Shown piece by piece: positions 5,101 to 63,502 of a stretch of 64,000 nt of DNA. The DNA is taken from contig KZ538067.1 of NCBI GenBank assembly GCA_000934665.2, positions 62,001-126,000 of the forward strand, in the 5' to 3' direction. The notes below the pieces were generated by a model. The model searched no databases. It saw nothing but the letters and a program-made list of their open reading frames with translations, and was not told the origin of the DNA. A program made the position numbers and the translations under genes. The DNA is from Catajapyx aquilonaris. Its lineage: Eukaryota. Numbering within the stretch: position 1 is the stretch's first letter; each line of letters opens with the position of its first letter.

Positions 5101-6327
5101 TTATGGTCATGCATGCTATAGTAACATGACATCTGGTGATAGGTTATTGTTATTACATGTCATTTTGGTTTACCCAGGGTTTACCCAGTTGTTTGTTTTA
5201 ATGTTCTCTGAATGGTTTGATTGCAATGCATGAGTGTCATTTTTAGTTAATTGGGATTAACTTGCATTTCCTTCTTCAATGCTGCTATGACTCCTTATTA
5301 GAGGGAAGTGTAATTGTTGCAACATAACCTAATCTACTTTAATTACCTTGTACCGTACTGGCTAACTGGCAATAAGTTATGTATCCTACTATGGGGCTCA
5401 AATTGTTATGGCCACTTTATCCTGATCTTGAAGTAACCCTTCGCACAGGCCCCACGTTGAGCAGGTGTGTGAGTGTGAAGGGTTGCTTCAAGACCAGGAT
5501 AAAGTGGCCAAAACAATTTGAGCTCCATAGTACTTGTAGAATATACAATACAGTCATGAAATAATAGTATCGCTCGGTAAAGCCCCTCTCGCCTTCGTTG
5601 GCCTACCAGCTATCTACTACATTATAAGTTACCTAAAGTGACACTTACAAAGTTAGGCCTACAGTATACTGTACATGATTTTTAGCCTGAAATGTCTTAT
5701 GATTCACTCGTCAGCATCAGAAATAGGTCCGAATAGGTCCCTGATTCCTTTGATTCTTAGTAAATTCACGAAAGATGCGGAAATTGCTCCATCTTCAACT
5801 AGGCAATTACCCCCATGGCAATAACTGAGGGCGATAAGAAGTTTGGCAAGACGCGACGTTGTCATAATTATAACTTAGTAAATGTCCTGCATTTGACAGC
5901 AGGTAGGCCTACCTCAGAATTTATTATAAGAAAGGCATGACGAACAACTAGTCTGCCTCATATCGTCCGCTTTTATCGCCTTGGGTGGTCTGAAGTGAGT
6001 GTAATTCAGAAAATGAGGTGGCTGGAATCTGCTTTTAAAGTTTAAACTGAAGGCGGAAAAAATCGGTAAGTACCTGCTGGGAACTTGAGTATGCAGCGGC
6101 ATAAGAAGTAATAATTGAGGCACTTCGGACCAGAATATCTGTGGAGCATGAAATATCCCTACTTCGTTTTCTGTTAAAAGACAGATCTCAACCTCCTCCT
6201 TATCTAATAAACGCCACCCCCCCCATATTACATCTTTGAGAGTGTTAAAATACACATATACTTCACAGGCTCAAATAAAAGAGGTAAAATTGGTACAAGC
6301 AAGCATCCAGCCGGTGACTTCGTGAAA

Positions 6328-8529
6328 ATGGAGGTGATAAAAGGATTACAGAGTAATCTGGGCAAATCATTCAATACGGATGTAAAAAACAAGCTGAGGA
6401 ACACAACAGTTCAGCCTCATGTGAAAGATATGAAGATTGTGAATCACAAGGTAGAGTTTCATATGAAGAACACAGAGACGACTGTGCTGACTAATGGCGT
6501 AAATAAAAGTCCAGTCAATGTACCGATTAATGGTGTGAGGAAGCTGGTGGCACAGCACGTAAATAAGGCTTTGAAAAGGAACACCCCAAAGGTAGAGAGT
6601 CAAGAGAAAACTGAAGAAGAAGTACTGACGGAGAAAAGAGAGAAGGCCTTGAGAGATTACCTTATAGGGCTAAGTTTAAGTGAGCCACAGGAAGAGATGC
6701 GCAAAGGCGCAGGGAAAAAACCGCCACTGCATGAGATGCGCAAAGACGCACGGAAAAAACCATCACGTAAGGATGTCTCGACAAAGGTGAAAGGCGAACG
6801 TCAGGAAACCTTCACGTTTAAGGTTAGAAAGAGTGACAGAGCATACGTGAAGTGTGAAATGCAAGGCGAGACATTCTGGAAGCAAAAATCACTCTTGATT
6901 CAAGGGAAGAAATTGGATCCGCCAAGCTGGAATCACCGGAGAGTATTGCAACTGTCAGGATATCAACCGTACGGGTGTCATTATTCAAGCTGGATGCGAG
7001 AGCGCAAAAAAGCAATGATGGAAAGTCAGAACCCCTCTAACCAACCGAGTGGATCAATCACTAGTCAACCGAGCCAATTTCAGGCATCGACCTCCAAAAA
7101 ACCAAGCGGATATAAACGATCAATCTCGAACCAACCGAGCGATTGGCGGAGTCTAATCTCGAATAAACCGAGCACGCAAGAATCAACCTCAAAAAAATCG
7201 AGCACACAGGGATCAACCTCAAAAAAACCGAGCACACAGGGATCAACCTCAAAAAAACCGAGCACGCAGGGATCAACCTCAAAAAAACCGAGCACGCAGG
7301 GATCAACATCAAAGAAACCTGGAGGATTGCAGGGATCAACCTCAAAGAAACCTGGAGGATTGCAGGGATCAACCTCAAAGAAACCTGGAGGATTGCAGGG
7401 ATCAACCTCAAAGAAACCTGGAGGATTGCAGGGATCAACCTCAAAGAAACCTGGAGGATTGCAGGGATCAACCTCAAAGAAACTTGGAGGATTGAAGGGA
7501 TTAACCTCAAAGAAACTTGGAGGATTGCAGGGATCAACCTCAAAGAAACTTGGAGGACTGCAGGGACCCCAAAGAACCCCAACCCCAGCCCCAAAGAAAC
7601 TTGGAGGACTTCAGGGACCCCAAAGAACCCCAGCCCCAGCCCCAAAGAAACTTGGAGGACTGCAGGGACCACAAAAAACCGCAGCCCCATCCCCAAAGAA
7701 ACTTGGAGGACTGCAGGGACCCCAAAGAACCCCAACCCCAGCCCCAAAGAAATCTAGCGAACTGCAGGGATCACACTCGAATAAACAGAGCGGATACCTG
7801 AGAGTCATCTCGCATCAACCTACAGGATTGTTGGTAACAGTCCCGACTAAACCGAGAGAACTGCCGGGATCATCCTCGAAGAAATCCAGAGGAATGCTAC
7901 GAGTCATCTCGAGTAAACATAGCAGATTGATGGCATCATCATCTAAGAAACCGATGGGAGCGCAGGGATCATCCTTTAAGAAACCGAGGGGATTGCTGAA
8001 AGTCACCCCGAATAAACACAGCGGATTGCTGGCATCTTCCGCGAAAAAACCGAGCGGATTGCTGAGAATCATCTCAAGTAAACATAGCGGATTGCTGGCA
8101 TCATCCTCGAAGAAACAGAGCGGATTCCAGGGATCAAACTCCAAGAAACCAAGCGGTTTGCTGGAATCACGAATGAAGTCAAGGGGAGTGTTTGGCAATA
8201 TGAGTACGCGTAGCACTGGATTTGATGTCTCAAAAAGCGTGCACAAAGACAAGAGTGTGCAGACCGAGAACAGAATGAAGTTTGGTATGGGAGCCCAGTG
8301 CCAAATACCCCCAAAGACTGAAAAGATAATCGAGAAAGATGGCCACAAGTATCTAGTTAAAGGAGTGATTGGGGTTACAGACGGAAAGAATGTGCTTAAA
8401 CTGGTTAGGATCAAGGAACAACAGTGCAAGTTTCCATCGAAACTGAAGCGTAATGCTAAGACCAACTATTTGGATATGTGTCTATATTACCTCAAGAGGG
8501 AAGGGGAGGTTGCTAGGGCTAAGCGACAG
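6328..8529 (+). CDS. Basic repeat-rich HMG-box protein, coding exon 1 (Lys/Ser/Pro-rich tandem repeats)
   Basis: 2202-nt open frame from aaaATGg; upstream acceptor ttcacag|6269 and donor 6065|gtaagt suggest a 5'UTR exon; phase-0 donor CAG|gtacag at 8529 joins in frame to 8611. Confidence 0.75.
7030..8165 (+). repeat. Coding minisatellite: 30-bp (PSTQGSTSKK), 33-bp (PGGLQGSTSKK), 51-bp (LGGLQGPQRTPTPAPKK) and degenerate 33-bp units
   Basis: All unit lengths are multiples of 3; visible in DNA and protein. Confidence 0.9.
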
Positions 8530-8610
8530 GTACAGTGTCCAACTTTTCTCTAGTTTCTGTGATCACCTCGTAATATCGTACCCCTGTATCATTTTCAAAT
8601 ATGCTTACAG

Positions 8611-8826
8611 GCGGCGAATAGGCCTCCTTCTGAGGAGGTTTGCCGCGCAGCTTGGCGCAGTACGCCCCAGAAGCCTGTAGGGTTTACCCCCATTATGCCT
8701 CAGGAGGATTATCCTTGGTTGCGCCAGCCGACACCCAACCACGAGATTCCAGCGGAACAAATGAAGCCCGTTGACTTAAAGGGTCCAGTAACGGCTTTCC
8801 ATGTGTTCTGTTACAATCTTCGTAAG
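8611..8826 (+). CDS. HMG-box protein coding exon 2 (ends with HMG helix 1: DLKGPVTAFHVFCYNLRK)
   Basis: cttacag|GCG...AAG|gtaag; 216 nt, phase 0/0, no stops. Confidence 0.8.
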
Positions 8827-9847
8827 GTAAGCGTCCATTTTACTATTTTTTTTGCATTATTATTATTATTAATTGAAACCTGCCACAACGCTTTAATAAA
8901 ATAGTCACTTTGGTTGTAAGTCCAGAGGTGCACCTCGCTCGAACCCCCTGGAGGTGCGGGCACCCCAGGTTAAGAACCGCTGACCTAAAGGATCCTACTT
9001 AATTCAGTTAAAATCACGCAGGTGAAATCTGCATACTTCTGCCATAAATGACCGAAAAAAACTGAATTAATTTCACATGTATGACCTTCAAAGCCCTTTT
9101 TCTGAAAACTGTTCTCATGTGGGTTGACGCATTATTGCATAACACCGGCCAATGGGGAAGTAGCCTTCATTTTGGAAACTACATAATAAATTCGCCCATA
9201 TTTCTTGGATTTTTTTGGCATATTCCGTTTTAAGATATCAGTTTCAGTTCCGGAGTAATTGGGGTTTTTATGTAGGGAAATGGTGACGTCACTGTTTCCC
9301 TAGAAAATGTTGACGTCACGCGAAGTGAAATGAACGCAAAAATGGTGTTATAGAACGCGCCCCGTCATTGTCGTAAAATGCTTCGCTGTTGTTAGCAACC
9401 GTCCCATTCCGTGAGCAAGATAGCGGCCGGGGCGCGTATTTATTCCAGGCCGCTCAAGTCGCTTTGTACGTGGCAGTGATGCCACCAGCTCGGAAATATA
9501 TGTCTCCCGAATTAGGCACATAAAGGCCCCCCTTCTCCACCTCGATGGCCTACAGCCGCCTTGCGAATGCTTTCCGTCGTGTCCGCGGTTAATTCAAAGT
9601 CAAATTCCTCATATCTCGCAGTCAACCAGGCATTTCAGAGTACCCTTTCGATTGGCACCACTCTGTTGCGCCTTTTTTCCCGCCAATTTTGAAGGCACTT
9701 TTAAATGTGCCGTAATTTATCCAGTAATGTCATTTTGATGCAACAGAGTGATGGAATGTATGTTTACAGGCATGGGCTAGCTAGTTATGAACAAAAACCC
9801 CAAATCCCAGACCAAGGCTACTTCCCCATTATAAAATGCAGTAGGTA

Positions 9848-10450
9848 CCCGTTTTACACCGCTCCATTTTACGCTGTTTTACGTTAACGCCGCGCCGGTT
9901 TGAAATGACATTTATAAAAATTTTAACTTGGAAAATTGTGAAAAAATGACGATAACAACACAATCTGAACATAAGCACAACACTTCAACACTTTTAAGTC
10001 CAAATGCACGACCATACAATAACGCTATTTTTTGTCTTTCGTGGTGCCTTGTGGCGGGTTCTATCGATAAATACAGTATACCGTATTGTCCCCCAAAAAG
10101 GGCTCTGCCCTCGCAAGGGGTAACGTAAATAAAAACAGTATACCGTTTTGTTGGTCTCATCGGAACCCTCCGAAGTCTGTTAAATACCCTACGTCTACTG
10201 CTGTTCTTTCCAAAAGAAGGGAAAAGAGGCCTCAGAACCAGATGACCCTTAACCTGGAACATCCCATTAAACGTGCATTATACATGTTTAAAATAGTCGG
10301 CATTAAAAACTGCAATTTAAGCACTGTATCCTGGAAATTTTTGGAAATCTTGGAACCTATCTCATTTACTTCCATTATAATTTTGTCTCGTTTTACGCCT
10401 TTTCATTTTATGCCACATTTTGCTGGAACCAATTACCGGCGTAAAACGGG
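9848..10450. mobile_element. Non-autonomous DNA transposon, CCCG...CGGG termini, TA TSD (EnSpm-like or Tc1-like)
   Basis: TA|CCCGTTTTACACCG...CGGCGTAAAACGGG|TA, inside intron 2 of the HMG gene. Confidence 0.65.
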
Positions 10451-10570
10451 TACTACCTGTATCCTTATCCTCCTCGCAACCAAAGCAACTCTTCTTACCC
10501 TTATATCATTATATCCTAATATTATATATTATAATATTTTGTAATTATATCATTTCTTGCTTCTCAATAG

Positions 10571-10720
10571 ACATTCAGGGAGAAAAACCCTGAGACATTT
10601 TCTGAGCAGGGGGTCGCCAAAACCGTTGCAAATCTCTGGTACGGGATGACAAATCACTCCAGGAATTTCTACAGACCGAACAAACAACAAAGTATAGAGG
10701 AGTACCAAGGTAAAATCTAA
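10571..10720 (+). CDS. HMG-box protein coding exon 3 (HMG helices 2-3)
   Basis: ttcttgcttctcaatag|ACA; translates TFREKNPETFSEQGVAKTVANLWYGMTNHSRNFYRPNKQQSIEEYQ, completing an HMG box in phase with exon 2; ends at TAA 10718-10720 or splices at 10709|gtaaaa. Confidence 0.75.
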   Translation, partial: TFREKNPETFSEQGVAKTVANLWYGMTNHSRNFYRPNKQQSIEEYQGKI

Positions 10721-10729
10721 AAAGCCCTT

Positions 10730-13043
10730 AAGTCCTCCATGGATGACTCTAAAATTTTTGGTCCTGTTGGTTTCCAGAGGATAGCGTCGTAGAATAAAAG
10801 CCACAGAATGCTACGAGACAGCCACCTACAGAGGCGTGTTATCTTTCCGAAATTATTTCACCATTTTATCATATTCAGCAACAGAAGAAAATAACCATTA
10901 ACAAGAAGATTTACCTCCAACCATTGGCAGTCCATTATGGGATGTTGCTAAAATTTCCGTTCCTGGTGGTTTACATCGGATAACAGCACAGAATGCTACT
11001 AGATAGTCACCTCCAGAGGCGTGTTATCCTACCGAAATTATTACCAGTTTACCATATGCAGAAACAGAAGAAGAAGAAAAATTAACAAGAAGCATTACCT
11101 CTAACCATTGGCAGTTGTTCATGGGATGTCGCTAAAACTTCCGGTCCTGGTGGTTTCATTCGGATAACACCGCATAATAAACGCCACAGAATACTACTAG
11201 ATAGTCACCTCCAGAGGCGTGTTATCCTTCCGATATTATATCACAAGTTTACCATATTCAGCAACAGAAGAAGAAGAAGGAGAAGAAGAAAAATTAACAA
11301 GAATCATTACCCCTAACCATTGGCAGTCCTTCATGGGATGTCGTTAAAATTTCCGGTCCTGGTGGTTTCAATCGGATAACACAGCAGAATAAACACCACA
11401 GAATTCTAGTCACCTCCAGATGCGTGTTATCCTTCCGCTATGATATCACCAGTTTACCATATTCAGCAACAGAAGAAGAAGTAGAAGAAGAAGAAGAAGA
11501 AGAAGAAGAAGAAGAAGAAGAAGAAGAAGAAGAAGAAGAAGAAGAAGAAGAAGAAGAAATTAACAAGAAGCATTACCCCTAACCATTGGCAGTCCTTCAT
11601 GGGATGTCGCTAAAATTTCCGGTCCTGGTGGTTTCAATCGGATAACACAGCAGAATAAACGCCACAGAATTCTAGTCACCTCCAGATGCGTGTTATCCTT
11701 CCGCTATTATATCACCAGTTTACCATATTCAGCAACAGAAGAAGAAGAAGAAGAAGAAGAAGAAGAAGAAGAAGAAGAAGAAGAAGAAGAAGAAGAAGAA
11801 GAAGAAAAATTAACAAGAAGCATTACCCCTAACCATTGGCAGTCGTTCATGGGATGTCGCTAAAATTTCCGGTACTGATGGTTTCCATCGGATAACACCA
11901 TGGAATAAACGCCACATAATGCTACTAGACAGTCACCTCCAGAGGAGTGTTATCCTTCCGCTATTATATCACCAGTTTAACATATTAAGCGACTGAAGAA
12001 GAAAAAACCAGTAACAAGAAGATCTACATCTAACCATTGTGTCCATCATGGGATGTCGCTAAAATTTCCGGTCCTGGTGGTTTCAATCGGATAACACGGC
12101 AGAATAAACGCCACAGAATGCTACTCGATAGTCACCCCCAAAGGCGTGTTATCCTTCCGAAATTATATTACTAGTTTACCACGGATATTCAGCAACAGAA
12201 GAAGAAGAAAAATTAAAAAGAAGCATGACCTCTAACCATTGGCAGTCCTTCATGGGATGACGCTAAAATTTCCGGTACTGATGGTTTCCATCGGATAACA
12301 CTGCAGAATAAACGCCACATAATGCTACTAGACAGTCACCTTCCGAGGCGTGTTATCCTTCAACTATTATATCAATTATATCACCAGTTTAGCATATTCA
12401 GCAAGTGAAGAAGAACAAATCCAGTAACAAGAAGATTTACATCTAACCACTGGGTCTTTCATGGGATGTCACTAAAAGTTCCGGTCCTGGTGGTTTCCAT
12501 CTGATAACACCGCGGAATAAACGCCACAGAATTCTAGTCACCTCCAGAGGCGTGTTTTCCTTCCGAAATTATATTACCAGTTTACCATATTCAGCAACAG
12601 AAGAAGAAGAAAAATTAACAAGAAGCATTACCTCTAACCATTGGCAGTACTTCATGGGATGTTGCTAAAATTTCCGGTCCTGGTGGTTTCAATCAGATAA
12701 CACCGCAGAATAAACGCCACAGAATTCTAGTCACCTCCACAGGTGTGTTATCCTTCCGATAATATATCACCAGCTTACCGTATTCAGCAACAAAAGAAAA
12801 CACCATTAGCAAGAAGATTTACATCTAGTCATTGGCAGTCGTTCATGGGATATCGCTAAAATTTCCGGTCCTGGTGGTTTCCATCAGATAACACCGCAGA
12901 ATAAACGCCACAGAATACTACTAGACAGTCACCCCCAAAGGCGTGTTATGGTATCCTTCCGAAATTATATCACCAGTGCATCATATTCAGCAACAGAAGA
13001 AAAAAAAGGATTAACAAGATTTACGTCTACATATTGGCAGTCC
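10730..13043. repeat. Tandem satellite, ~11 units of ~185-265 bp with embedded (GAA)n
   Basis: Anchor motif AAAATTTCCGGTCCTGGTGGTTTC recurs near 10751, 10950, 11134, 11346, 11612, 11862, 12061, 12265, 12474, 12667, 12858. Confidence 0.95.
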
Positions 13044-31618: not shown

Positions 31619-32545
31619 AGATGCAAGCTAACTTTCATCCAGGCTTTTATCATACATTGTCTACTCAACCAACACAAAAAACAAGTGTTAAACCAATCAC
31701 AGCCCTCAACAATATATACTACCAGGTAACGTTTCAAACAGCTTTATTTCATTCCAGATACCATACACAATCTTTTATGGTAAAAATCACAGTGTGTTCC
31801 ATATCTGGATCCTTTCAGTAATCACAAATTTTACTCAGGGTTGTTACTTTTGTGTAGTTTTTGTGCTCTGATCAAGTGCCCAATTATATAGCAGCTGTCA
31901 TATTCAATGGCAACTAGCAATATTGGGGACCTTGAAGGGGGTGCAAAAACCTCCACAAAAATAACTTCAGGCAAAATTTGTGATAAAAGGACCAGATGCT
32001 TGGAACACACTGTACACGATACCCTCCCATTTAATAACACAAGTCAACCATGTTAATATTCCCAACGACTTTAAACTATTACTTTCAAATCATCAATTCA
32101 GGTGCATATATGTGCCCTTTACATTGCGTACATGTACTGCATATTTATGAATTCAAAATACCAAAGTACCATAGAATTAAGAGTGAACATTGAATAAAAA
32201 CCAAAACCCCTTGGTAACGTTATGGAATGGTACTCATTCATAACATTTGTTGCAAACCCTTCATTTCCAAAATTGACTCACATGTGTTTTGGTGAATACT
32301 TTGTGAATACTTGCCCATATCAACTCACCTTCAAGTTTGGCATGAAATCATGCGTACCTTTGGAAAGACCATTCAGTGCCACACTTGAAGGTGAGGCAAC
32401 AGGAACAAGTAGAAATGAGGATCCACAAGATTTCTACTGGTCCACATGTGGCATACATTTTAAAATATTGTGTAAATGTAAAAGAAAACATAGGCACTAC
32501 AAAAAAAAATACTGACAGATATATAAAAACCATGGGCAAGCCATT

Positions 32546-33201
32546 TTACTGGCGATGTGTGGGATTCAGGGAATCCAGGACTTGTCCGATGTCACCCTCC
32601 TTGACTTGCAGCAGCCGGGTCAGCCAGCCACCCTCATCAGTAAAACCCATGGCCAGCATCTGATCCAAAGCCTGGTGCACCACAGGGCTGAGGTTTGGTG
32701 ATGGGTCACTGGCGCCTATCTCCACCTGGGGTTGTTGGCGAGTCTGCGGTGGCGTTTCAGGTGACGTTCCACAGTCTATCTCTACCTGGGTTTGTTGGCG
32801 AGTCTGAGGTGGCGTTTGAGGTGGCGTTCCACATTCCATCTCCACCTGTTGTTGCATCTGCCGAGTCTGAGGTGGAGTCTTGGGTCTGGCACCCCCCCTT
32901 CCATGGACGTTGTCAACGCCACTGTTACCTCCTGTTGACATTCGCTGCAGTTCCTGCAGAAGGCCGGAGAAGATGCTGCTGGCCGACGGTGCAGGTTGGG
33001 GCACATGAAAAACATGTGGAGCCGAGGATGGAGGGGCAGTAGGGCCAGGATTTGGAACCTGAGGCAAGACTGGGGCAGCAGGGGCAGCAGGGGCAGCAGC
33101 AGTGGAGGTCATCACAGGGGTAGCATTAGGAGCAGTAGTTGTGGAGTTGGGTGTTGAACCACCATGATGACGATTTCCAGAAGCATTATTGGAGGAGTCA
33201 T
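32546..33201 (-). CDS. SQSTM1: Sequestosome-1/p62, last exon (low-complexity linker and UBA)
   Basis: Acceptor ctttcag|AT in phase 1; C-terminal [33 protein letters not shown] is the p62-type UBA; AATAAA on - near 31743. Confidence 0.93.
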
Positions 33202-33286
33202 CTGAAAGATCAGCAAAATAGCATTTGCAGATTAGCAGCTTCTATCCAAGAATGTATAAATTCTATACACATCGTATGATTATGTA

Positions 33287-33570
33287 CATGTAGCCCCCAT
33301 TTCACAATGGGGTTAGGTTCCCTCAAAACAAGGTCGTAAAATGAAAAGTGTTGAAACAAGACCTATATTATATTGCACCAGGAAAAACAAAGGAAGCACC
33401 TATTGTGTGTTTGGACTCACAGGCATTGCAGTGATGTGTTACTCGTTAAACTTGTTATTATTTGCAATTTTTATTTATGAATTTCCAAACTTTTCACCTT
33501 CAGGTAATTTGGAAAAGGCCGTTAACTTGAAACATTGTGAAATGGACTGTTTTAAAATGGGGGCTACCTA
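33287..33570. mobile_element. Tigger-like MITE (degenerate)
   Basis: TA|CATGTAGCCCCCATTT...AAATGGGGGCTACCTA|TA; internal GGGTTAGGTTCC as in the 25712 copy. Confidence 0.6.
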
Positions 33571-35852
33571 TAGATTCTTAACCACATTGGGTGGAATGAA
33601 AATTCCACCCATTGTCTTTAAATTACTTTTAAAAGATTATTACAATGGGCATACTACAACTCCAGGATATCATACAGTTTATAACTGGTAGTAGTGTGGT
33701 TTGGGCAAATATTGTTTTCCAACCAAAGTGTCCATTTTGGTTTCTCATTTTGTTGCATGGACATTTTTTTTGAGCAGTTACTTTCCAAGTTACTTTAAGG
33801 GGCTACCAAAAACATTTGCTTCTAACATGAGGTTGAGTAAAAGCTTTCTTTCAGACCATTAATTCCATTTAATTTTTGACCTTAAGGCTCCACTGTGTAT
33901 GTTTCTTTCCAAATTTTGGTCAGTGAAGTAGAGTAAGGTGTCCAGACATGCCTTTCTTCAACAAATCCTGGATATGTTATTAGCCATCAGCTCAAGAAGT
34001 CTTTCTAATGGCATGGAGGAAGGTCCAGGGCTGTTTACTGATTAATGTAGAACTGGAGACTGTCCTAATAATGGATGTCACAGGGATATCGCCCGAGTCC
34101 TCCATTTATATGAGGATTCTGTACAATTTCAGATCCATTGTCATTTCTGACATTTTCAAGTCCTTTGGATATTTTTGAGTGTCCCTGCATAGAAAGAGCA
34201 AGAGCCCTGCCAACGTCACGTCCATTACAAGGACAGGTCTTGTTGTACTTCAGTAAAGTTACGGGTCTTTCACATCAGTTCATAACCACAAGTAGCCCTG
34301 GACCTTGCTCCATGCAATGCAAATGACTGCATGATTGGATGACTAAGTGCATGTCTGCCCAACTGAATATTGCTCGACACTGCCTAAAAAGTGGTGGGAA
34401 AAGGTATATGCCCCTCATACTCTCCGATTCGCATAAGCCTGAACCTTTTTGGATATCCATAAGCCCGAAAGTAGTGCCCACCATGCCGGACCATACCGCT
34501 CCTCATATGAAAATGCGCAGACTGTGTAGCGCTGCAGCTGCCGCATGGGCTGCCCATGATAATTAGCCATTCGAATTACATGTACCAGCACTGTTTCTTC
34601 GAGGAAGCCAGCGATACCGGGGACTAATTTTGCTGCGGCTCACCCCCTCGGAGTTTGTATACCCGAAAAGGTTCGGACTTGTGCGAATCAGAGAGTAACA
34701 TGTTGCAAGTGACATGGTAGCAACTGGGGTCAACGGTTAAACCAATTTTTTCAGGCTAATCCTCCAACTGCTGCAAAAAGACTCATTTATTATGTATAAT
34801 GTTAAAAGCAAATACTTTGGATAACGCTCTAACAGTTTGTTTAAGTGAGAATGAGACTAGGGTTATCCGGCTCTTAGAAGATACACAGTTAGAACGGATG
34901 AAGGCAGAAACGAAGAGAAAAAAGAAGACAGGGCTAGTATTCTTCTTTGTCTATCTCCTACTTCCAAAAAAGACCATTCTAGCTCAGATGATCCTGCCAA
35001 TATAATTCCTATGAATAACTACTCAATAATATGCAAGCTAGTGCTAGAAAACGGCTACCTGAAACTGACAGCTTCCCTGGAAGTTTATACTCAAGTTTGA
35101 GCCACCCTCAGCACCTCATGCACAAAGACAATTCTGCCGTACTTTCGAAAAACTACTCAACTACACATAGCACTAAGGTCGAGTTTATAGGCAACTCTCC
35201 TAGAAAGTTGACCTTAGCACTATGTGCAGATGCGTCGCTTTTTGAAAGTATGGCGGAATTGAAATACTTGAACCAACCCTGTTCAATGCATAATATTGAG
35301 AGAATCTCCCCTTGAAAGGCATTACAAGCCAAGTTAGACCAGGAATTTTTTTGGAACAAAAATAACACTCAGCCTACTAATTAATAATGTTCCTCATATT
35401 ACTAATGCAACCGGGAAATAGTAGTGATGTCACAATGGGCACCAGCAACTGTCAACAATGAAACTAACAATTGAAGGCTTGTGATATCATTATGATTCTC
35501 TGGTTGAATCAATGACATTAAGAAGCAGCTTGTCGCCATTTAAATGATTAAAGGCCACCAACCTCACAAGAAAATATTGCATTTTCTTATACAACCATTT
35601 ACTGCCTGCATGGGGCACATAAAATTTTTCCAAAGATTGATGAAATACAAATGACTTCCAAACCCCACCAATGGCATAATTTGAATTAAACTTGATGAGG
35701 GATAAAGATAGCTCTACTCAAATGAATATTTCCATATTGGCACAACTATCCCACCCCACCTATGAGTCAAGTTCCCAGTAAGTTTACCCTGGTCTAATCC
35801 ACTACATTAGTGGGATTCTCACCAGTTAAGTTGACAACTGGAATCTTGTTAC

Positions 35853-35949
35853 CATTCACAACAATCCATTCGCCATTGACGCTCTCATCTGCCTGGGCCT
35901 GTGAAGCGGCAGCTGTGTCAGGAACATGTTGTTGTTGTTGTGCAGCAGT

Positions 35950-35980
<31 letters not shown>

Positions 35981-36981
35981 GAAGTAGCAGTAGCAGCAGT
36001 TTCTGCAGCCTGCCTTGCAAAAGTTGCATTGGCAGCAGCCATGGCAGCTTCCCTGGCTGCAAGTCGCACACTCCTTTCAATAGGATCCTCTTCCATATTC
36101 GCACCACAGTGGGTAAATTTGCCTCCATTATGAACATCAACATCGACATTTATTCCAAAGGGATCCAGGGCAGCGGCAACTACTTCACCTATCTGTCGCA
36201 GGTATGAATCGGCATTATCATTGCCAACATGCTCAGGCTGACCAGACTCTGGGCGAGCAGATTCACTGCCCTCATTCTGGTCGCCAGACTGTGGATGAGA
36301 GGTATCCATCCCCTCATTCTGGCAGCCATGATGACGACGGTGATGCCTCCCTCCACAGTGGTGCCGACGTCCTCGGAAAGGATATCGGAATGCACCCTCA
36401 AGCCGGTCACCTGCGAATGCTCCGAGAGTTCCTCCAAGTAGATTTGATATGCGTCCCATGGCGCATCTGATACGATTACCATCGATGCTCCCTGTGAGAC
36501 GCACCATCATGTGTTGCGGGTGCTCGCCCTTTGACTCACATGCAGCACAGAGGTCGTAATCAGGGCACTGGATACACTTATATCGATAGCCCGTCACGCC
36601 ACCATTGCATCCATCACATGTAACATGGGGATGTATATTCCCAGCAGCTGATTTCGGCTGTGCTGCAGCTGCACTACCTCGGGGTTTGACGTACAATCGG
36701 GTCATTGTTGGCATCTCAGCAATGGCAACTCGAAGATCAGGAGCACCAGAAATAGTGATCTCATCGCCCTCAGAATCTAGCCAGGTTATAGTATATTCAT
36801 CAGTGAGGTTACGTCCAGTCAAAGTGCAGTAGCTTGATAATAGGGGAAATGTTGTGCAAATTTTCAGACGAAGCTGGCCAAAGTCCACAGACTCTTCTGG
36901 AGAGAGTGTGAATCGGCGAATTTCTTCAGCACCATCAGAGGTCACTAGGTGTACTTTGAATGGGTTGTTTGGAGCCGTCAT
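35853..36981 (-). CDS. SQSTM1: Sequestosome-1/p62, first coding exon (PB1, ZZ, LIR)
   Basis: PB1 (FKVHL; WLDSEGDEITI), ZZ (CDGC...YKCIQCPDYDLCAAC...H..H), LIR-like EWIVV. Acceptor ttgacag|36998 makes aaaATG at 36981 the likely start rather than 37014. Phase-1 donor G|gtaaca at 35853 matches the last exon; ~594 aa in total. Confidence 0.93.
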
Positions 36982-37086
36982 TTTAGCCGGAATCTTCCCT
37001 GTCAACCAAGACATAAAAATGAATAAAAGAGTCCAGGATGTTTATCATATTGTTACAGTCTAAGGAATTAGTCCTTCACTATAATA

Positions 37087-43946: not shown

Positions 43947-46900
43947 TGTTATTTACTGCACCTGTGGCCTAGGCCGTATGGGCGGGTGGTTCGCACGGTA
44001 CAAAGTCTAATTGAATATCACAAAAAACGAGCAGATGACAAATCTCACAGAAAAATCTATACACCTGATACAGAACATATGATCTTTGAAAATTGAAAAC
44101 ATGTGCTGTGGAGGAACATTTGGTACATATTTTTCCAAATCAATTCTTTGTGTATTAAAAAAAAAGAGCAGACATACATTACATGGAAGAGATCGAAGTC
44201 TTGCAACATGTTACATAAAGTGCACATACTCTGAGATGCAAAAGCAAACCTATAGTTATTAACCCATATTGACTGAGTCTTGTTTCTTAGGTTTGCCAAA
44301 AATCTGGTAATTTTTACTGGAGATTATAATTAAAATAAATTTCTCTTACATAGCTCAAATCCTTAAGCACTGTGTAATTTGCATATCTTTTAGATCTCGT
44401 GAGTCTGTCGCGATCACTTTGTATTGTCTCGTCGTAAATACGCATCAAGTGAGGAACCAGCCATTGAACAACTTCTCGACTTCAAGTAACCAAGGGGATC
44501 TCTTGTCTTTCTCTAACGATCTTAGGTATTGGAAACAGAATATAGCGTAACTGCAGCTATTCGTAGTCTCCCTATTTAACCTGTTAACCCTTTGACGACT
44601 ACAGACATCATATGATGTCCAAGCATACTTTCCTGCAGGGCCTACGGACATCATGTGACGTCTTGAGATTTGCCCTGACAACTTGGGACATTTTCCAACT
44701 CGTAAAATTTCGACCTCACCGATTTTCTTGAAATTCGGTGCATTGGTAGCCCACCCCAAGGGATGAAAAACGCACCTATAGTTACCTTCTCAAAATGACC
44801 GTGACCCATATTGGAGGGGGGCATATGTCAATGCACCGAATTTCAAGAAATTGGCGAGGTCAGAATTTGACCTCTGCCCTCATCAGAATGGGGTCACAGG
44901 GTCATTTTGAGTAGGTAACTATATGTGCGTTTTTCATCTCTTGGAGTGGGCTACCAATGCACCGAATTTCAAGAGAATCGGTGAGGTTGGAATTTGACCT
45001 CTGCCCTCCTCAAAAATGGGTCACAGGGTCATTTTGATCAGGTACAAGTAACTATAGGTACCGGGTAATCTGGGGGTAATCCGGGCAGTCCGTGGATTAT
45101 TATTCATTAACATCCCTCTTCATCAAATTTCCAGAAAAGGGGACAAAGAACTCACGCCCTCGGGTAAGGCAATGGCTCAAAAACTCCGTCGTCAAAGGGT
45201 TAATCAAGTTAATCGTAATCTTAAGTATTTTTATGATCATTGGCCTTCTACCCGTTTCTAACCGGAGGAAATTTTCAAATATTACATTGTCTTGTATCCT
45301 TTTTACAAGGTTGACACAAATGAAAATGGACCATTTAAACATATTCAGCCTAGGTCATGATAAATGAGCACGCAGGTATCATGGCAATTTGCCAAAGTCT
45401 CCTTTGGAAGGCTCAAATTGTTCGATTGACATTGGAGCAAAATCAGTGTGACATGAGAGCTGAATATCAGATCCCACCCAAGTGGGCTTGCTGCGGAAGT
45501 GCTATGTAGAGCAGCAAGTTGTAATCCTATTCTTGGAGTCAGACAGAGTAACAGTGTAGTACACCCTGATGTTGGTTGAGCCCCAAAAAGTCTGGCAGGA
45601 ATCTCTTTCGGGATATCTTAGGATTCTATAATCATTCTGATGTCAATTTGGTCAATGAGTTGATAAGACCACATCATACATATGGCAATTTCTGGCTATC
45701 TCGACACACCTAAGTTTCAATTTTAATTGAAGCGTTGACAATTACCAACATAACAACTGCTGGTCCATGATCCTCTTTGTAAGCCTAGGTTACCAATGCA
45801 GCTTATACTTTATTCTTTAGTCAAATAACTCTCCACATTTTACTTACCTCTCTCTTTCTCTGTCCCTTCCGCTCCATCCTTTTCTTTGTGAGATGAGCTT
45901 GTGCCTGCTGCATCCCCCTGGCAAATTTCTCTGCCCCAACCCTTCCTCTGATCAAGTCAGCCACCTCACAAGCCAGTGATCTCAGATCTGCATCTGGACT
46001 GGTCTCAGAAGTCTCTCTGACCAGCAATGGCAGCATTGGGGGAAGTAGGTAGTGGAGTTGTGCTGGGGGCAACTCTAAGGAGACTGCTGCAAACCAATGG
46101 AATACCACCGTTCGCTAGATGGGAAAATATCATAGTGGATTAGCAGGCGTAGAGTGAAAAATCTGATTTGTAATAATTATTATAATTTGGGGCTTTTCAA
46201 CAATATTGTGATCATTACATTACGTTATGTTAATTTTTACTCTGATAAGCTCAAGGGAGTATTAACCTTGACTGTGTTCTTTGGTGTTTTTGTCAGTTCC
46301 ATGTTGGCTTCCTTCCTCATCCTCATGGTTAGCCACCTGAGGCTGAACCGTCTCTTCTCGTTGGGGTCACTCCCCTCATCCTCTTCCGGGTCCTCCACAA
46401 GTCCTGCATGAATCATGACCTTGGAAATAAAGACAAGATTCTTGGCTGCCTGTTCTCCTGTCTGTAGATCTGTCTCTCTGGGCTGTAGCTGGCAAGTCAG
46501 GTCGAAGGCCAGACCTCGAAGACGTTTCCGTACTGCAGTTGCATCCCCACAAAGAAGGTAGTCTTCTGGCTGATCTGAATGATCCAAGTTTGAGAGAGAT
46601 TTGGCCACTTCGCATGGGTCATAGGAAGAAAGCATCTGGCCTAGCAGCTGGGAGGCAGAAAGGCGCACCCAAGTATGCTCATGAAGGAGGTGGCTGCCTA
46701 TCATGCCTGAAATTAATTGGTTAAAAATTTTCAGTGTGAATCAGAAACAATTATCCAAAAATGACATCAAATATGCCATCATTCCACAGATGATATGTTT
46801 GTGGAGCTTCAGCACTTTGGGACTTTTTTGGCGGGTTTCCAGTGGAAACCTTGGGAATCGTTGTGAAATATGTGGTCATAGTAATTATTATCTTACAGCT

Positions 46901-48074
46901 ATATTTAAAAAAATAACTGACATGTGATATCCTCAGTCACTAGCTTCGAATATTATCAAATACACCACCCATAAAAGTACTCACTCCACACAGAGTTGAT
47001 CAGCTGATGCTCCTTCACCATTGCAGGGCATTTCCTGACCATTTTCATTATTGATCCCAGAGCCTGGAAAGCCAGGTGGTCTCTTCCCTCAACACTGTCA
47101 TTCCCTCCCTTTTTCTTCTTTTCACCACACTGCCCCTCATCCAGCATTGCTGTCAAGAGAGGCAATGCTTTTTCTGCCCTCTTCACCACATTTCCAACCT
47201 CCTCTGCCTCACAGAAGAGACCCAACACTTGTGTGCCAAGGCGTCGGAGGCTGTACTTCTTGGCCTTCAGCCAGGACACAACCACGCCAAACATGTGGTC
47301 TCGGTCTGAATTGTCTAGGCGTTCAATAAGGAGGCGGACACATGCTGCTGCCATTTCACGAAGGTCAGCCATCTCTTCATTGGCTAACCGGGAACACAGG
47401 GTCACAAATAGGAGGCCACAATACTCAGAAAGTGGGCGCTGGAAAATCAAGAAAACATTCAGTTGATAAACAGACTGTCCTTGGGATTCTCAGGCCTACA
47501 TAAATAAAAAGCATACCATTACTAAAACTAAACAAGATACTTCTGTAGTCTCATACCTTTGGAAATTTCTCCACCACACGATGGACCATTTCCAACACTG
47601 ACTCCCTACCAGTCGACTCTGGATAGGCCATCTGCTGTGTGAAGAACACTATATGCCTCTTGAGGCCCCTTCCAATTGGATATTCCAGAAGGAAGTGGAT
47701 GATCAGCTCTCTGGCCTGTGTCCTTACATGAGGAGCTGGGCTAGTCACGCACATCTGCATCACTTTGTCCATTACATCCCATATCTCAGTGCACATCAGT
47801 TGCCTTGCCACTACAGCTCTCAGCAAACCAAAAGCTGTTGACTGTCTTGTGGAATCCTCTAAATCTTGCTCGCACCTGTGGAAGGTTATTAATAATAATA
47901 AGCAGACAGTATCAATTACAATGCTTATTTTAGCTTGAAATGAGCAATGAAGATATTTCTGTAGGTAAAGATCCATTGTGATGGTACTGTCACAACTCCT
48001 GACCTAAGAATTTGCCAAAGGAATTACTTCTCCAAGTCTGAAGCTGATGTGTATGCCTAGATCCTGGTTCATGT

Positions 48075-48108
<34 letters not shown>

Positions 48109-51100
48109 CATGCAGTAGATTTTTTAAACTAATTAGTTGAGCGGATGTGTCCAGCAAGATCATCATCATCATCATCATCACATGCAGTAGATTTTTTAAA
48201 CTAATTAGTTGAGCGGATGTGTCCAGCAAGATATTTCGAAAGCCTCCTCTCATACCTTATCAACAGAACTCGCAGCTGATCTGAAGTAATCACATAGTAG
48301 GAAGCATCTCGTACAAGAACAGTCACAGTCTTGAAGGTAGCCATCAATAAGTCCAGGTTGTCACCATGTGAAGCTCCAGGTGCTGCATACTTGTGGAGTA
48401 TGACAAACAAGGTCTCAGTGATAGTTTTCACTGACTTCTTGACAGCAGGTGAAGGGTGTTTGAGAAAAAACCCTGTGCATCGGACAGACATGGCAACCAA
48501 CTTGATGTTGGGGGATTTGAGGCACTCAACCAGATGGCATACAAGAGGGTCCAGCATGCTACGGTGCAGTTGGGCCTCTTCGGTGTCCCCAGTAAGAGTC
48601 ACTTTGCCTCTTTTTAGAAGAAGATGTAAGAGAGCTAGGCCAAAATGGATCAACACATGAGCATTTGTCTTAGGAGACGTCTTTGTGGCTGGACCCGCTC
48701 GTCCAGGATTAGCTGGGATGATGAATGTATCTGTTGGCTGAAAATGGCAGAGTTAATTTTTTTCCCCTCAGGCATTATCATTAAACTTGCAATTTGACAG
48801 TACCCTGTACAATAATACTAACACATTTTAATGATTTACTCATTGCAGAAAACCAATATTGACATAGTGAATCTGTGAATTTGCCATTAAAAGTCATTTG
48901 CAATATAGTTATGACCTAAAGCCAGCTTTTGTTCATGTCTTTAGATACCTGCCAAATGCCAAGGCTGTTCTACTGCCACTAAGGTCTAGTTGCACAGAAA
49001 ATATTTTCAGAAAACATGATTTGCCTGGATAACAGTCGGAGGTCTGTTATTCATTTCTGTAAAGTGTAAACAAAGTTGTCAACAATGAATAAAACTTTTC
49101 TGGCCCTTTTCCAGCCAGAAAATGTTTTCAAGAGGTGCTGAAACTGGACCTAAATTCAAAATCAAATTACAGTAGCAGATATGCAGAGCCGAAACAAAGA
49201 AAATAATGCTGACCTGCAGCCTGATGTCATGTGGCTTGGCCTTTGCTTTATTGGCCTTAATTCCAGTGAGCTGAGGAATACTCTGTGACACCACACCATA
49301 GAGAAATTCAATTAGGGCCTGTGTGTCCACTCCTTGGTTGTCAGCCAGGCCAACTGCCATTTGCTGCAGGCACTCCTCCACCTTCTTGACCTCCTTGTGA
49401 GACCTGGTCTCATGAAGCACTTCCTTCAGGGGTAGAATCAGGTCCATCAGCACCTTGCTAGATGCATATTCAGCGAGAAGATGATAGGTATCAAATGCTG
49501 TGGTACGTCGAGCCTCTCGAACATTACGCAGGTTGCCCTTCTCTTCACCTTCCTTCTCTTTTTCCTCAGCTGTCTTGCCAAATATGTCTGTGTGGCATAA
49601 CTACAAGAAAAAAATTAATTAATTAATTACATACTTGTTTAAAAAACAATATAAAAGCAAGACAAAAAGTTGGGACAAAATTGAGCTCTTTAACAGTTTA
49701 ACACATATCCTGTGGTCTCTTAGAAAATCTGCATTTGACCTGATTTTGTTTTCCATAACCTCAGTTACAATGACTTTTGACAGGAAACCAGAGAAAACCC
49801 ATTGAAACCATTTAACACAAATGTGCAACATAGGAATAGCCTTCAGAAGCAAATAGCACTTCCATATCAGTCAAGTGGCTCGCAAATCATGCTGCACATG
49901 CCTTTGGTGTGTTTTGTCTGAAGTAGATATTACTGGGTCCAGACCCAATAATCTTATAGGCTAAGAACTCACAGCATTATTTATTCTCCCACAGCCTGAC
50001 TAGGAGGTCATGATTTTCCCCTGATCATTTGACCTTTCTAGTTTCTACAAGAATCTGACATATTGCATCTGTGGTGCTATTTACACACACAATTTTCACT
50101 TGAGGATAATTGTGTCTGCACCTTTGCCACATCAGTTTATTGAAATATTCTCAACATGTGCAGGCAGCAACTAGCAAGGCTAGTGTAGAGTTGCCCAGCC
50201 CTCTGAATGCTGTGTCAGGGTTGTGTGTTTCATGACTAAGCAATGTGATAGGGCTACAAAACATGTTTCTCTCATAAAGAATAATTTGCATAATTCTCTG
50301 GATAAAGCATAATTTTATCAACAATACCAATAAGAGCCCCTGTAAAGAGCATAATCTATCATACTTCAATTATTGTTGTAAAGCACTCGTCCAGGTCCCC
50401 AGCCTCCATCTTTGTCTTGAGGGCAATCAAGATAGAATGCAGTGTGAAGAGGAGGACATGAGCATGGAAACCACGGTTCAGCATGACTTTGATTTGGTCC
50501 AGGAAGGGGGAAAAGTAGGTTGGGCCCAGGCTCTCCATGGCTCTCTTCAGGGTGTCTCTGGCTGACTCACGGACATCTTCTGCACGGGACTTCAGGAAGG
50601 AGCACAGCTTCAGGAGAACACTGAGGAAACACACTAGCATATAGTTTCCAAGCCAATGAGAGATGTCAGGTGACACAGTATTGATAAGCAACACCTCCAT
50701 TTTATTTCTAATCCTAGAATTTAACTTGTCATATCAATAATTATCTAAAGGGTAATTCCACTGTAACTAACGCAAACACCTGGAAAGGGATTCGTGCTTA
50801 CTGATATTTATTGCAATGGCAAAATAGTGTTAATGGAAAAGTAATGGGGAGGTGTGGTGGCCGAGATGGTAACGTCTTGGCTTGCTGAGTGAAAGGTCCC
50901 AGGTTCGATCCCCGCCTGGGGAGTTTCCTTTCACCTGCGTCAGGAGGGTCTGACCTGCACCAAGGAGGTGTCTGGCAACCTAACCTCCTGGGGAACAGCA
51001 CATTGCCCAATGCTTGACATTGCACTTGCACCCATGTTCCCTCCCCAAAAATCCCTACCCTTTCCCAATGTCCCTGTTTCCTTGCACCGGAGAAAGAAGC

Positions 51101-51192
51101 TGGAAAATATAGAAAACTGATGGTGTGCCACCCCCCCCCCCCCCCCNCCCCCCATTGATCTCGTAAGGGACATCACGGGGTAATTTTGTTAA

Positions 51193-51256
<64 letters not shown>

Positions 51257-54200
51257 GAAAAGTAATTTAAAATTATTCCCATGTGGATGCCTCCTGGCAG
51301 CTTATTGCCATATTTTTAGAATTTCGCAACAGTAACTTGAATGGACTTTGTAAAATATTAATATAATGTAACTGATGCAACATGAAAAAGACAAGCTCTT
51401 TGGGGGGTGCTGTAGTGATGTGAAACCCTCTGCGCTGAATGTGTTTAGAAGTAATGTTACAACTGATATGTGCTCTACACTAGAGGAGCAATTTCGTGAT
51501 TATTTTAGACCACACCTATTCATGTTCATGTTTTCAAGAGAAATTAGGATTAACATAACTGATGCAACAAACAGTCGAAAGCTGCGTCAGTTATGACTGT
51601 TATATCTTGACTTTTCCATGGTTCTGCTGCTAACTGGTAGCAGAACGTTGCTACACCCTCTTCATCTGACTTAATGACATAATGATCTGCTTTCAATAGG
51701 TCATCTACCACCCCACAATACGCGACTTCATTTTTGGATCATGCCTCAGTTCCCGTGGAATTACCTTAAATGAAGACCTCGGGGGAAGAACTATCAAGGT
51801 CTACCTCAGGTGAAACTGAGATATTCCCATTTTAAATTTCGAAGGCCCATAAGGTTCTATTGTAAATCCCAATTTTGGGGCCTTCCACAGTGACCTATGA
51901 TCATTACTCCACATCCACGACCAACCCATCATATTCTACACTAGTGAAAGTATCTTCTGAGGTACGCAACTCATTTTTGACAAAAAGTGGACCTTGATCG
52001 TTCTTCCCCCGAGGTCTTCAAATAATCTTTTCATGCACAGGTGAAAGCTTACGGTTTACATAAACGTACGAGGGCAAATAAAAAAGTAATTGACAACTTT
52101 TTTATTTCCAAAGCTTCACTACTGAAACAGAAACTGACATATACAGGGTGTTCCAAATATTTGGGTCACTTCTTGATAACTGATATCGCCCAATAGCAGT
52201 TATCAAGAAGTGACCCAAATACTTGGAACACCCTGTACATATGAAAGGGCAAGTCTTCCTCTATTTTTAGACATAGTCACTCTACACTTTGGTGCAGCAG
52301 GACACTAGTTTTTTTTCCATGCCACTGCAGAAAAAAGCGTTGGGCTGGCTTGGAAGTAGTGGCAGATGGCCTGTTTCACTTCCTCGTTGTCGCTGAAGTG
52401 CTGACCCGCCAGGTGGTTCTTCAGTGGTACGAAATGATGGTCTTGACCTTGGTCTACCATCTCTTAGGACCAAGAAAGAAGCACTGGCTTGTTAAGACCT
52501 CAGCGACATAAAGGAAGTGAAAGAGTGGCTTCCCACCCAGCCTGATGTTTTTTTATGCAGTGGCACGGAAAAGCTAGTGTTTCGCTGGGACAAATGCACC
52601 AAAGTGTATGGTGACTATGTCTAAATATAGAGGAAGACTTGCCCTTTCATATGTATATTATGTTAGTTTCAGTTTCAGTAGTGAAGCTTCGGAAATAAAA
52701 AAGCTGTCAATTACTTTTCGATTCGCCCTCGTATTTAAAATGTGTCCAAATGTGATAAGCAACCTGCATGTCATGAAGCAATAAATTAATATTGTGTTGG
52801 ACGCCAGCCAAGGATGTCACCATCAAAAACACTATGCTCACTCTAAAATCAGTACCGGTACTGTAGTACACTCACCCAGGTATATGTGCATCTCCTAGCT
52901 TCTTTGGCAGGGTCTGGAGCAGCTTTATGAGAGCCAATGCCACTGGAACCCTCAGAATTTCCTTGTCAGAAGAAAACTCCTTCATATTGGTCTTATGCAG
53001 GGTTTCATTTGAGTTTCTCTGTGACAGGCATGCCTTCAGCTCTGGGAGGAGGGAGAGGCATATAGTTCTGTGGATTCTGGTAGCAGTGGCAGTTGGTAGC
53101 ACGGTTGACTTTTGAGTATCCCCCTGTTCTTGTTCCTCATCAGTTGAGGCAGTAATGGTTTCCAAAACCACATCCATGCCTTCACTCTCATCTGTAGATA
53201 CTTGTTTTTTCTCTGCTGGCTCAGGTTCAACTTCCATGCTCACTGATGAACCAACTATAATTTGTATAATGCAATAATTAAAATATGATATACAGTCTAT
53301 GGCATTCTGGTGGGAAGAGAGAAACTAAAACTCACAATAAAAATCACAGTCCCTCTACCAGTAACCCCTTGCCCTAACACTGATATATTTATCAAGGAAG
53401 TCCTAACAACAGGAGGCAGTACAGGTTTAAGCCTGTGTCACAAAAAAAAGTCGCAGCGTTCCTACGCTGCGGCATACGCGAGCAGTGAAACCCCAGGGCA
53501 ATGGGCAGTGGATCTCCACAGGGGAAAACGCCTATGCAATCCATGAAAATCTATTGTGCGAGTGCAGAGTCCTCTCAGAAAGAAAAGAAACTTCTCTTCG
53601 CACGCACAGCCATGGTCACAGCCAGACAAGACGGATAGGGTGTGCTAGGAAGAGCAAGGTAGGGCAGAGCAGGGGTGCGGGCAGGACAAGAGCAACAGAG
53701 AGTGGGGTTGAGAGCAGGACACTGGGCGGAAGACGAGGCAGACCCTGGGCAGAGCAGGGCAGGGGTGTGGGCAGGGAAAGAAGGGGGGACAAAGATGTCT
53801 ACCATGTCATGAAGCAGGGTTGAGGTTGGAAAGGGAGGGATGGCTGTCATGTGACTGCACAGGCCCTCTTCCCATTGGCAGTCACCAGCGACAAACTGCC
53901 TGAATATCAGGCCAGCAATATTCTGCATTGGGCCTGTTTGCCACAGTGACAGACACCATCGCGCAAGAAATTTTTTATGGGGATTGGCCTGTCGCGTACT
54001 GCACGCAGCCTCAGCGATGGAACGCCACGACTTTTTTTTGTTAAACAGGCTTTACCTTGCACTAACCCATTTGGACTCGTGTATAAATGGGTTAAATTAT
54101 TCTTTATTACAGGTTGTCAAGTAGTTAAACAGTGCAGCAGCTTACCTTGCTCTGCATTGCTGAGATCAAAGTGAAATGCATTCAGGATAGCCACAACAAT

Positions 54201-61845: not shown

Positions 61846-61925
<80 letters not shown>

Positions 61926-62937: not shown

Positions 62938-63502
62938 CTGAAATAAATAATAATGATGAGAATTCAATTACTGTCACTAATGTGATCATTAGGGTCCGGA
63001 TTTTTAGGCAAATGCCTATTTAGTTCCTTTGCAGTTGGGATGGTCTTGTGTAGAGATCTATTAGTTTCATAAGTGCAGGATGTGGAAAATGTAGGTTTTA
63101 TAGTGCTTAAAATTGCCTATTTCATGGTTTTGGGAACTATTTTGTCTATTAGGGCTTTTTGCAACTTTTCATGGCTATTTCGGGATAATTTTTGAACTTT
63201 TTGATGCGATTTCGGGACTTTTGGGCCTATTCTGGACCTATTCCTTCAGAGGCATGTTTGTTTTTTGCTGAGTATTTTTTATGCTCTTGAAAGGACCAAA
63301 ATCGTTCAGAAGTAATCAGTTTCACTAAGGAAAATCCAGAAAAATATTTGGTAACATACTGTGCAAGTGGAAACGGGCTATAAGCGGTAACAGTCCACAG
63401 CAAGTGAATCTTGCTTGCACTTTGTCTTTTGCCAAAGTTTTGTGATTTTCTGTCGGTTTATCATTGGTTTATTCAGTTTTTGCTCTGGTTTGTCACCCTA
63501 TA

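Follow-up and report, generated by a model that had tools for sequence, protein, structure and literature searches.

A divergent, spliced HMG-box gene with a long basic repeat arm in Catajapyx aquilonaris shares an intron position with two lineage-specific HMG families

We analysed a 64,000-nucleotide stretch of the 286 Mb genome of Catajapyx aquilonaris (GenBank assembly GCA_000934665.2, contig KZ538067.1, C148 in our numbering, positions 62,001 to 126,000 of the forward strand), hereafter called the window, to which all coordinates refer. A long basic open reading frame (ORF) on its + strand continues across two introns into a divergent HMG box, giving a predicted protein of 855 amino acids (aa). 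The second intron, of phase 0 and placed after position 17 of the box, is common to the window gene and to 16 other HMG boxes from two families specific to this lineage, and this shared split is the new observation of our study. We are highly confident that the locus is a real HMG-box gene, and its product is probably a chromatin-binding protein. Because genes of protamine-like appearance in the same genome carry the same intron, the window gene may help to pack sperm DNA.

Gene structure and HMG box

A frame open from stop to stop over 6211-8553 (780 codons) has its first ATG at 6328. A preliminary description of this DNA had proposed a 743-aa ORF spliced in phase across 8529/8611 and 8826/10571. 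The long ORF does splice onward at exactly these sites, both introns being GT-AG and of phase 0 (Table 1); its unspliced length from ATG 6328 is 741 aa, not 743. The donors read CAG/GTACAG (after 8529) and AAG/GTAAGC (after 8826), the acceptors TACAG/ (8611) and AATAG/ (10571), each exon length is divisible by three, and the stop codon (10718-10720) lies four residues past the last Tyr. The spliced product has a pI of 10.45, with 162 Lys+Arg (19%) against 55 Asp+Glu, and Arg makes up 5% of it. Outside the repeats described below, 374 codons of exon 1 are open in the gene frame only; the other five frames are interrupted by 9-24 stops in the N-terminal portion and by 2-10 in the C-terminal one, so the repeats do not explain the open frame. 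As far as sequence can tell, the three-exon model was confirmed, the splicing being predicted from the same letters. Upstream of a putative intron at 6066-6268 the frame reaches a stop before any in-frame ATG, and this intron therefore probably lies in the 5' untranslated region (UTR). The first AATAAA downstream of the gene is at 10793.

To assess the C-terminus we used a hidden Markov model (HMM) of 25 boxes, taken from 30 HMG loci of the same genome with five short or redundant ones omitted and the query excluded. Joined exons 2 and 3 scored 27.1 bits over HMM positions 3-62, whereas exon 3 alone scored 14.0, exon 2 alone 4.8 and exon 2 read through 4.5. The highest score among shuffled controls was 10.5 bits (2000 made, 1731 returning a score). 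When 560 alternative acceptors lying up to 20 kb from donor 8826 were compared, the one at 10571 came out best at 28.4 bits, against 16.0 for the best acceptor outside exon 3. By these measures the spliced C-terminus, which the preliminary description had read as an HMG box, is a genuine but divergent one, and the window gene belongs to the HMG-box superfamily. The alignments retain the aromatic core, with Phe and Phe in helix I, Trp ending helix II, and Tyr and Tyr in the region of helix III; together with a score far above the shuffles, this suggests continued selection.

Generic searches said less. The locus is absent from the genome-wide matches to PF00505 (86) and PF09011 (52), and a Pfam search of the separate exons returned no HMG family and no transposase domain; matches to SspB, PsaD and SNU71 on single exons were weak, fell below the cut-off and were set aside as noise. 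The sole PDB sequence match of exon 3 by phmmer was the TOX HMG box (E 0.44), and HMG clusters held Atlas ranks 2 and 3 at 0.82, which we take only as a lead. AlphaFold2, given exon 3 with ten paralogue exons, predicted helices at 12-25 and 28-48 (mean pLDDT 80), where those of an HMG box should lie. Foldseek found no significant match to this model, and of the 50 rows given by VIA-align 7 were HMG boxes, at Z 3.0-3.5, level with unrelated helical pairs; fold searches of this fragment, folded without the part of the box in exon 2, were not discriminating.

The preliminary description had also called the gene lineage-specific, fast-evolving and joined to a long basic repeat region. The gene is very divergent, and our searches agree in that no orthologue was detected. 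Against 1.84 billion representatives exon 3 gave nothing at E 0.001, a 49-aa query having little power. For residues 615-734 there were 91 candidates, all proteins of 403-1285 aa, of which none scored, and the Atlas gave no usable match for residues 640-734. No database relative was found for exons of the paralogue families either. A genome search with PF06382 returned no match, but its controls were likewise blank and it was uninformative. Within the genome the gene is single-copy as far as its parts were searched, no second copy appearing among the best candidates, which were those scored. A transposon origin was rejected, as no part searched had a paralogue and no exon a transposase domain.

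A shared intron and two paralogue families

Many weak HMG matches in the genome turned out to be exons starting near box position 18. When 40 genomic stretches were fetched and their exons joined by script, all five two-box genes proved to have the phase-0 intron after position 17, as did 10 of the 14 small Arg-tailed genes (in the other four the site was not recovered) and one longer gene with an Arg/Cys-rich tail. In the fetched loci, 49 other distinct boxes were unbroken across positions 12-23; by names read from sequence, they are of the Sox, TCF, CIC, TOX, SSRP1, BAF111, HMG20, HMGB, TFAM, polybromo and UBF types.

The two-box genes lie on C4725 (three in tandem; locus L045), C6752 (L046) and C1885 (L047). 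A first exon holds the first half of box A, with an intron after position 28; a middle exon of 62-73 codons holds the second half, the linker and positions 1-17 of box B; a last exon holds the rest of box B, and both introns are of phase 0. These genes are divergent and HMGB-derived with basic ends in place of the acidic tail, and are candidates for transition-type proteins. The small genes, at least 14 in number, encode about 78 aa comprising one HMG box and a Lys/Ser/poly-Arg tail (pI about 11). Of the 14, 11 are at least 90% identical to the exon searched with and lie on different contigs, most of them short, and 3 are at 50-57%; the small genes look like amplified protamine-like genes. The longer gene (L044, minus strand of C5534) has Asn-Gly-Asn repeats before its box, and its neighbour about 1.3 kb away on the opposite strand is a small Arg-tailed gene.

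In a tree of 39 boxes, box B of the two-box genes and the boxes of the Arg-tailed genes formed a clade (SH-aLRT 98.4, bootstrap 76), and box A of the two-box genes grouped with canonical HMGB box A (92.8/91); one HMGB box A row in this tree was two residues short and without its Trp. Given these two groupings, the intron has the distribution of a shared derived character.

Repeat arm and possible second box

The preliminary description had noted about 380 aa of 10-, 11- and 17-aa repeats. The unit sizes stand, and the extent is shorter, about 360 aa (residues 256-615), with all unit lengths multiples of three nucleotides. Motif counts over the whole protein are 17 SKK, 11 SKKP, 3 APKK and 1 SPKK. 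The region has a pI of 11.9, with 19% Lys+Arg and 1% Asp+Glu, and the charge-hydropathy index predicts that it, like most of the chain, is disordered. No dense basic stretch was found, net charge staying at or below 0.22 per residue in 45-aa windows.

We then asked what had been retained in the older, degenerate array, where nine units have diverged from the consensus at 3-13 of their 33 bases. All nine retain the final Lys, against a neutral expectation of 5.0 (P 0.005), no unit has acquired a stop (P 0.045) and Lys+Arg exceeds expectation (P 0.03), while the scarcity of acidic residues does not reach significance (P 0.14); the nine units are not mutually independent. The 10-aa units are the sole array in which pS exceeds pN (0.136 against 0.018). 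This pattern looks like selection on the spacing of charge rather than on sequence.

The preliminary description had further suggested a second, degenerate HMG box across exons 1 and 2, which we could not confirm: a box A profile on these exons gave 0.2 bits, a score equalled by 368 of 1000 shuffles, and none of five profiles supported a second box. In anchored alignments, 475, 171 and 175 of 2000 shuffles did as well when gaps were allowed, and 176 and 20 of 2000 when they were not (P 0.01-0.24 over the five tests). The exon layout is nevertheless that of the two-box genes. In both, intron 1 sits 20 residues past a Tyr and a C-x-x-x-W motif follows, and the middle exon, 72 codons and phase 0-0, falls within the paralogues' range. 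A decayed box A at this place is plausible. Just before it, three beta strands are predicted with low confidence at aa ~660-700 (8300-8420), and residues 645-734 folded without an alignment gave a pLDDT of 46 and no usable fold match. A faint likeness to HMG helix I, Tyr..Trp-Met-Arg-Glu-Arg, also occurs ahead of the repeats (6970-7030, aa ~215-237), with a score below 0.

Table 1. Features of the window gene and its surroundings, and contigs of the small Arg-tailed genes
Feature	Position	Strand	Remarks
5' UTR intron, probable	6066..6268	+	strong GTAAGT donor, TTCACAG acceptor; predicted from sequence
Coding exon 1	6328..8529	+	2202 nt, 734 codons; other frames stop-rich
Unique basic N-terminal region, aa 1-255	6328..7092	+	no family match or paralogue
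5 x 30-nt units	7168..7317	+	10 aa, ending STSKK; repeat analysis
7 x 33-nt units	7318..7548	+	11 aa, ending TSKK; repeat analysis
4 x 51-nt units	7549..7752	+	17 aa, Pro-rich; three APKK and the sole SPKK (7690-7701)
Older degenerate 33-nt array	7776..8169	+	about 10 units of 11 aa; frame and terminal Lys retained
Possible decayed HMG box A, across intron 1	8446..8720	+	exon layout as in two-box paralogues; sequence scores at shuffle level or borderline
Intron 1	8530..8610	+	81 nt, GT-AG, phase 0
Coding exon 2	8611..8826	+	216 nt, 72 codons; last 17 codons (8776-8826) are HMG-box positions 1-17
Intron 2	8827..10570	+	1744 nt, GT-AG, phase 0, after HMG-box position 17
Coding exon 3	10571..10720	+	150 nt, 49 codons and stop; end of helix I, helices II and III of the HMG box
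Possible additional splice donor AAG/GTAAAA	10710..10715	+	phase 1, just 5' of the stop; from sequence only
Tandem array with (GAA)n tract	10732..13040	+	11-12 units of about 190-260 bp, most with AATAAA; this locus only
Small Arg-tailed genes			contigs C5534, C4962, C5630, C5104, C9410, C4726, C7634 (loci among L034-L044, L060-L062)
Small Arg-tailed genes, remaining contigs			C11159, C9145, C3169, C5727, C585, C735, C2240 (loci among L034-L044, L060-L062)

Possible origin and function

Our favoured explanation is that the window gene arose as a lineage-specific offshoot of a two-box HMGB gene of the Dsp1 type, which would have retained the three-exon frame of the paralogues and a divergent box B while box A decayed. 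A basic, disordered N-terminal arm of 700 residues would have been gained by tandem duplication inside exon 1. The HMG box would anchor the protein where DNA is bent or distorted. Lysine pairs recur every 10-17 residues along the arm, which has hardly any acidic residues and would bind the backbone at many points, neutralise it and bridge neighbouring duplexes; phosphorylation of its Ser and Thr residues could reversibly switch the bridging off. The likeliest setting would be chromatin remodelling in spermatids, where the protein might work alongside the small protamine-like HMG proteins, either as an auxiliary condenser or as one of transition type. The preliminary description had guessed at a germline role, a guess that the intron common to the protamine-like genes supports indirectly. 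Gene structure, homology of the HMG box, anatomy of the repeats and the shared intron position are shown; common ancestry with the paralogues, DNA binding, bridging, phosphorylation and testis expression of the window gene we infer. By analogy, the protein may work like an HMG-box or H1-tail chromatin condenser. The full reading, a fast-evolving HMGB offshoot that would bridge spermatid DNA through spaced lysine pairs, we put forward tentatively and with slightly less than even confidence.

Several results weigh against it. In the tree the window box has a very long branch, placed outside the shared-intron clade with weak support, and none of six placements is rejected by the approximately unbiased (AU) test (p 0.64 and delta logL 3.1 for the shared-intron clade, p 0.23 for Sox), the constrained trees having been made by fast search. 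Box B mini-profiles favour HMGB (16.5 bits), Sox (15.8) and Sox-like (15.7) boxes over the two-box (10.6) and protamine-like (7.4) ones, and kinship with the two families thus rests on the intron and not on sequence; parallel gain of the intron is possible. A sperm role for the paralogue families is itself suggested by composition alone. Box A lacks HMM support and is borderline in anchored alignment, and no orthologue was found, in searches of exon 3 and residues 615-734, with which conservation could be tested. In the 17-aa and degenerate arrays pN is about equal to pS. For a classical sperm nuclear basic protein it is large and only 19% Lys+Arg, with a net charge of 0.13 per residue over its whole length, and it has a single SP(K/R)(K/R) motif, the dominant unit ending in STSKK. 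Finally, the residues at the likely DNA-wedge positions of the box, considered below, are polar.

In Drosophila, sperm nuclear basic proteins (SNBPs) have come from HMG-box genes and are basic, fast-evolving and often amplified (PMC9917458), and a testis kinase is needed for the change from histones to protamines (PMC10164148). The window gene resembles the MST-HMG-box SNBPs (ProtA/ProtB, Tpl94D, Mst33A, Prtl99C, tHMG) in its divergent box and a pI above 10, and in fast evolution amid a radiation of related small basic genes (PMC9917458). Unlike those proteins, mostly below 200 aa (PMC9917458), it is about four times as long and has a 360-aa repeat arm, a difference that also counts against a sperm role. 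Its kinship and charge agree with the Drosophila picture, its size and density of charge do not, and this mismatch suggests an auxiliary or transition role; the Arg-tailed family appears to fit that picture well.

With HMGB, Dsp1 and HMG-D the window gene has in common a box of the structure-specific type, and in paralogues with a matching exon layout box A groups with that of HMGB. HMGB proteins have an acidic C-terminal tail and a mass below 30 kDa (PMC13251019). The window protein, in contrast, has no acidic tail in the main model, a putatively decayed box A and a very long basic N-terminus, and the canonical HMGB genes of the genome have no intron after position 17. The preliminary description had drawn an analogy with SPKK-type sperm histones H2B and H1 of sea urchins and hydrozoans. 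There too, tandem Ser/Thr-Lys motifs lie on a disordered arm beside a folded DNA-binding domain, and the window arm could likewise be switched by phosphorylation (PMC9903204). However, with the motif defined as SP(K/R)(K/R) (PMC9903204), these histones have five to seven copies against one here, and the window protein has neither a histone fold nor a winged helix. The analogy is therefore loose, and did not hold in its original form. PL proteins of Nasonia (Nv-PL1 and Nv-PL2) also join a folded DNA-binding domain to a disordered basic region (PMC13148410), but there a winged helix adjoins an Arg/Lys-rich stretch of 30-50 aa, whereas here an HMG box goes with dispersed Lys pairs; no Pfam match to a winged-helix domain was found in the window exons. 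The window gene is thus not HMGB proper, an SPKK histone or a PL protein, and it exceeds the size of Drosophila SNBPs.

Little is known about insect SNBPs outside Drosophila, and their turnover is fast (PMC13148410). The closest published case we found is a testis-specific Nasonia gene with a C-terminal HMG box, LOC103316943 (PMC13148410). The parts of the literature searched gave no account of a sperm protein that combines an HMG box with a long arm of tandem repeats, nor of an HMG protamine radiation outside Drosophila; gene lists in supplements could bear on both.

The alternative that survives best has the same origin and the same polyvalent DNA binding but makes the product a somatic or general architectural protein of chromatin, comparable with an H1 tail or HMG-D. 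The composition is only moderately basic, the gene is single-copy, unlike the amplified small family, and its neighbours, a PB1-ZZ-UBA gene and UTP20, are of housekeeping type. Extreme divergence, with no relative among 1.84 billion representatives, nevertheless fits a fast-evolving reproductive gene better, as does the intron common to the Arg-tailed genes. We regard a somatic role as improbable, if worth keeping in view.

A still less probable alternative is that the box no longer bends duplex DNA and, like that of Maelstrom, binds structured RNA, junction DNA or protein, with the arm forming a nuclear condensate or shield. The intercalating positions of such a box we take to be the residue after the first Phe in helix I and the first residue of helix II. 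The former is His in the window box; the latter is Glu/Gln in the profile alignments and Phe in the TOX phmmer alignment, which has a small insertion, so the loss of the second wedge depends on the alignment. Pro occurs early in helix III, and most of the chain is predicted to be disordered. For boxes without intercalating residues to bind, DNA has to be bent beforehand, and duplex DNA is not bound by the Maelstrom box (PMC4373776). On the other side, besides the Phe of the TOX alignment, the Maelstrom-like gene of this genome has a different split of its own in its box.

There is a small chance that the protein is structural or cytoskeletal, for example a spermatid microtubule binder acting through its lysine-pair repeats, with a vestigial HMG box. 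Repeats with Lys pairs and rich in Gly, Pro and Ser occur in microtubule-binding proteins, and box A may have decayed, but box B keeps its aromatic core and scores far above shuffles.

Returning to the spermatid reading, the shared intron connects an orphan protein of 855 aa with a family of protamine-like genes, and could serve as a marker for following HMG-derived chromatin proteins once sequence similarity has faded. Were the gene expressed in testis, the set would test whether HMG boxes have been recruited repeatedly to sperm chromatin and whether a long, moderately charged repeat arm does the work of protamine; otherwise it would be one more lineage-specific chromatin protein. A bolder version, which we find doubtful, is that one HMGB gene gave rise, independently of Drosophila, to a sperm-chromatin kit of two-box proteins of transition type, an amplified family of 78-aa HMG-box proteins with a true poly-Arg protamine tail and a giant lysine-pair repeat condenser, all marked by one intron. 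If true, this would be a second route from HMG to protamine and a new class of large sperm nuclear proteins.

Downstream array and neighbouring genes

A tandem array with expanding (GAA)n tracts starts 12 nt past the stop codon, and bears on whether the gene model is wrong at one end. Exon 1 could be a separate ORF, the 10710 donor could lead to an acidic-tail exon, or the gene could be dead or untranscribed. By eye this donor is as good as that of intron 1, and phase-1 splicing to acceptors within the units would add a Glu-rich tail as in HMGB. However, codon-position mismatch in the would-be coding part is 0.093, 0.067 and 0.089 against 0.074 outside, that is, without codon bias, and several units leave the reading frame; a coding function of the array was rejected on both counts, and this test supported no exon downstream of the donor. 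Intron 1 is short, matches in phase and is placed as in the paralogues, and 855 codons run without stop or frameshift. All told, a wrong model or a dead gene is very unlikely. HMG-like scores within the array (11.1 and 7.9 bits) were rejected, being produced by (GAA)n tracts translated as poly-Arg, and we treat the array as a duplicated 3' end.

Elsewhere in the window, a p62/NBR1-like gene with PB1, ZZ and UBA domains lies on the minus strand at ~32500-37050 and a UTP20 gene of many exons, also minus, at ~46200-63000. On the strand opposite UTP20, a DUF4817 helix-turn-helix at 56646-57227 is a probable transposon remnant. In the wider genome, UBF-like genes (L048, L049 and L050, on C3461, C5692 and C3237) show tandem repeats of the first HMG box, split after position 28.

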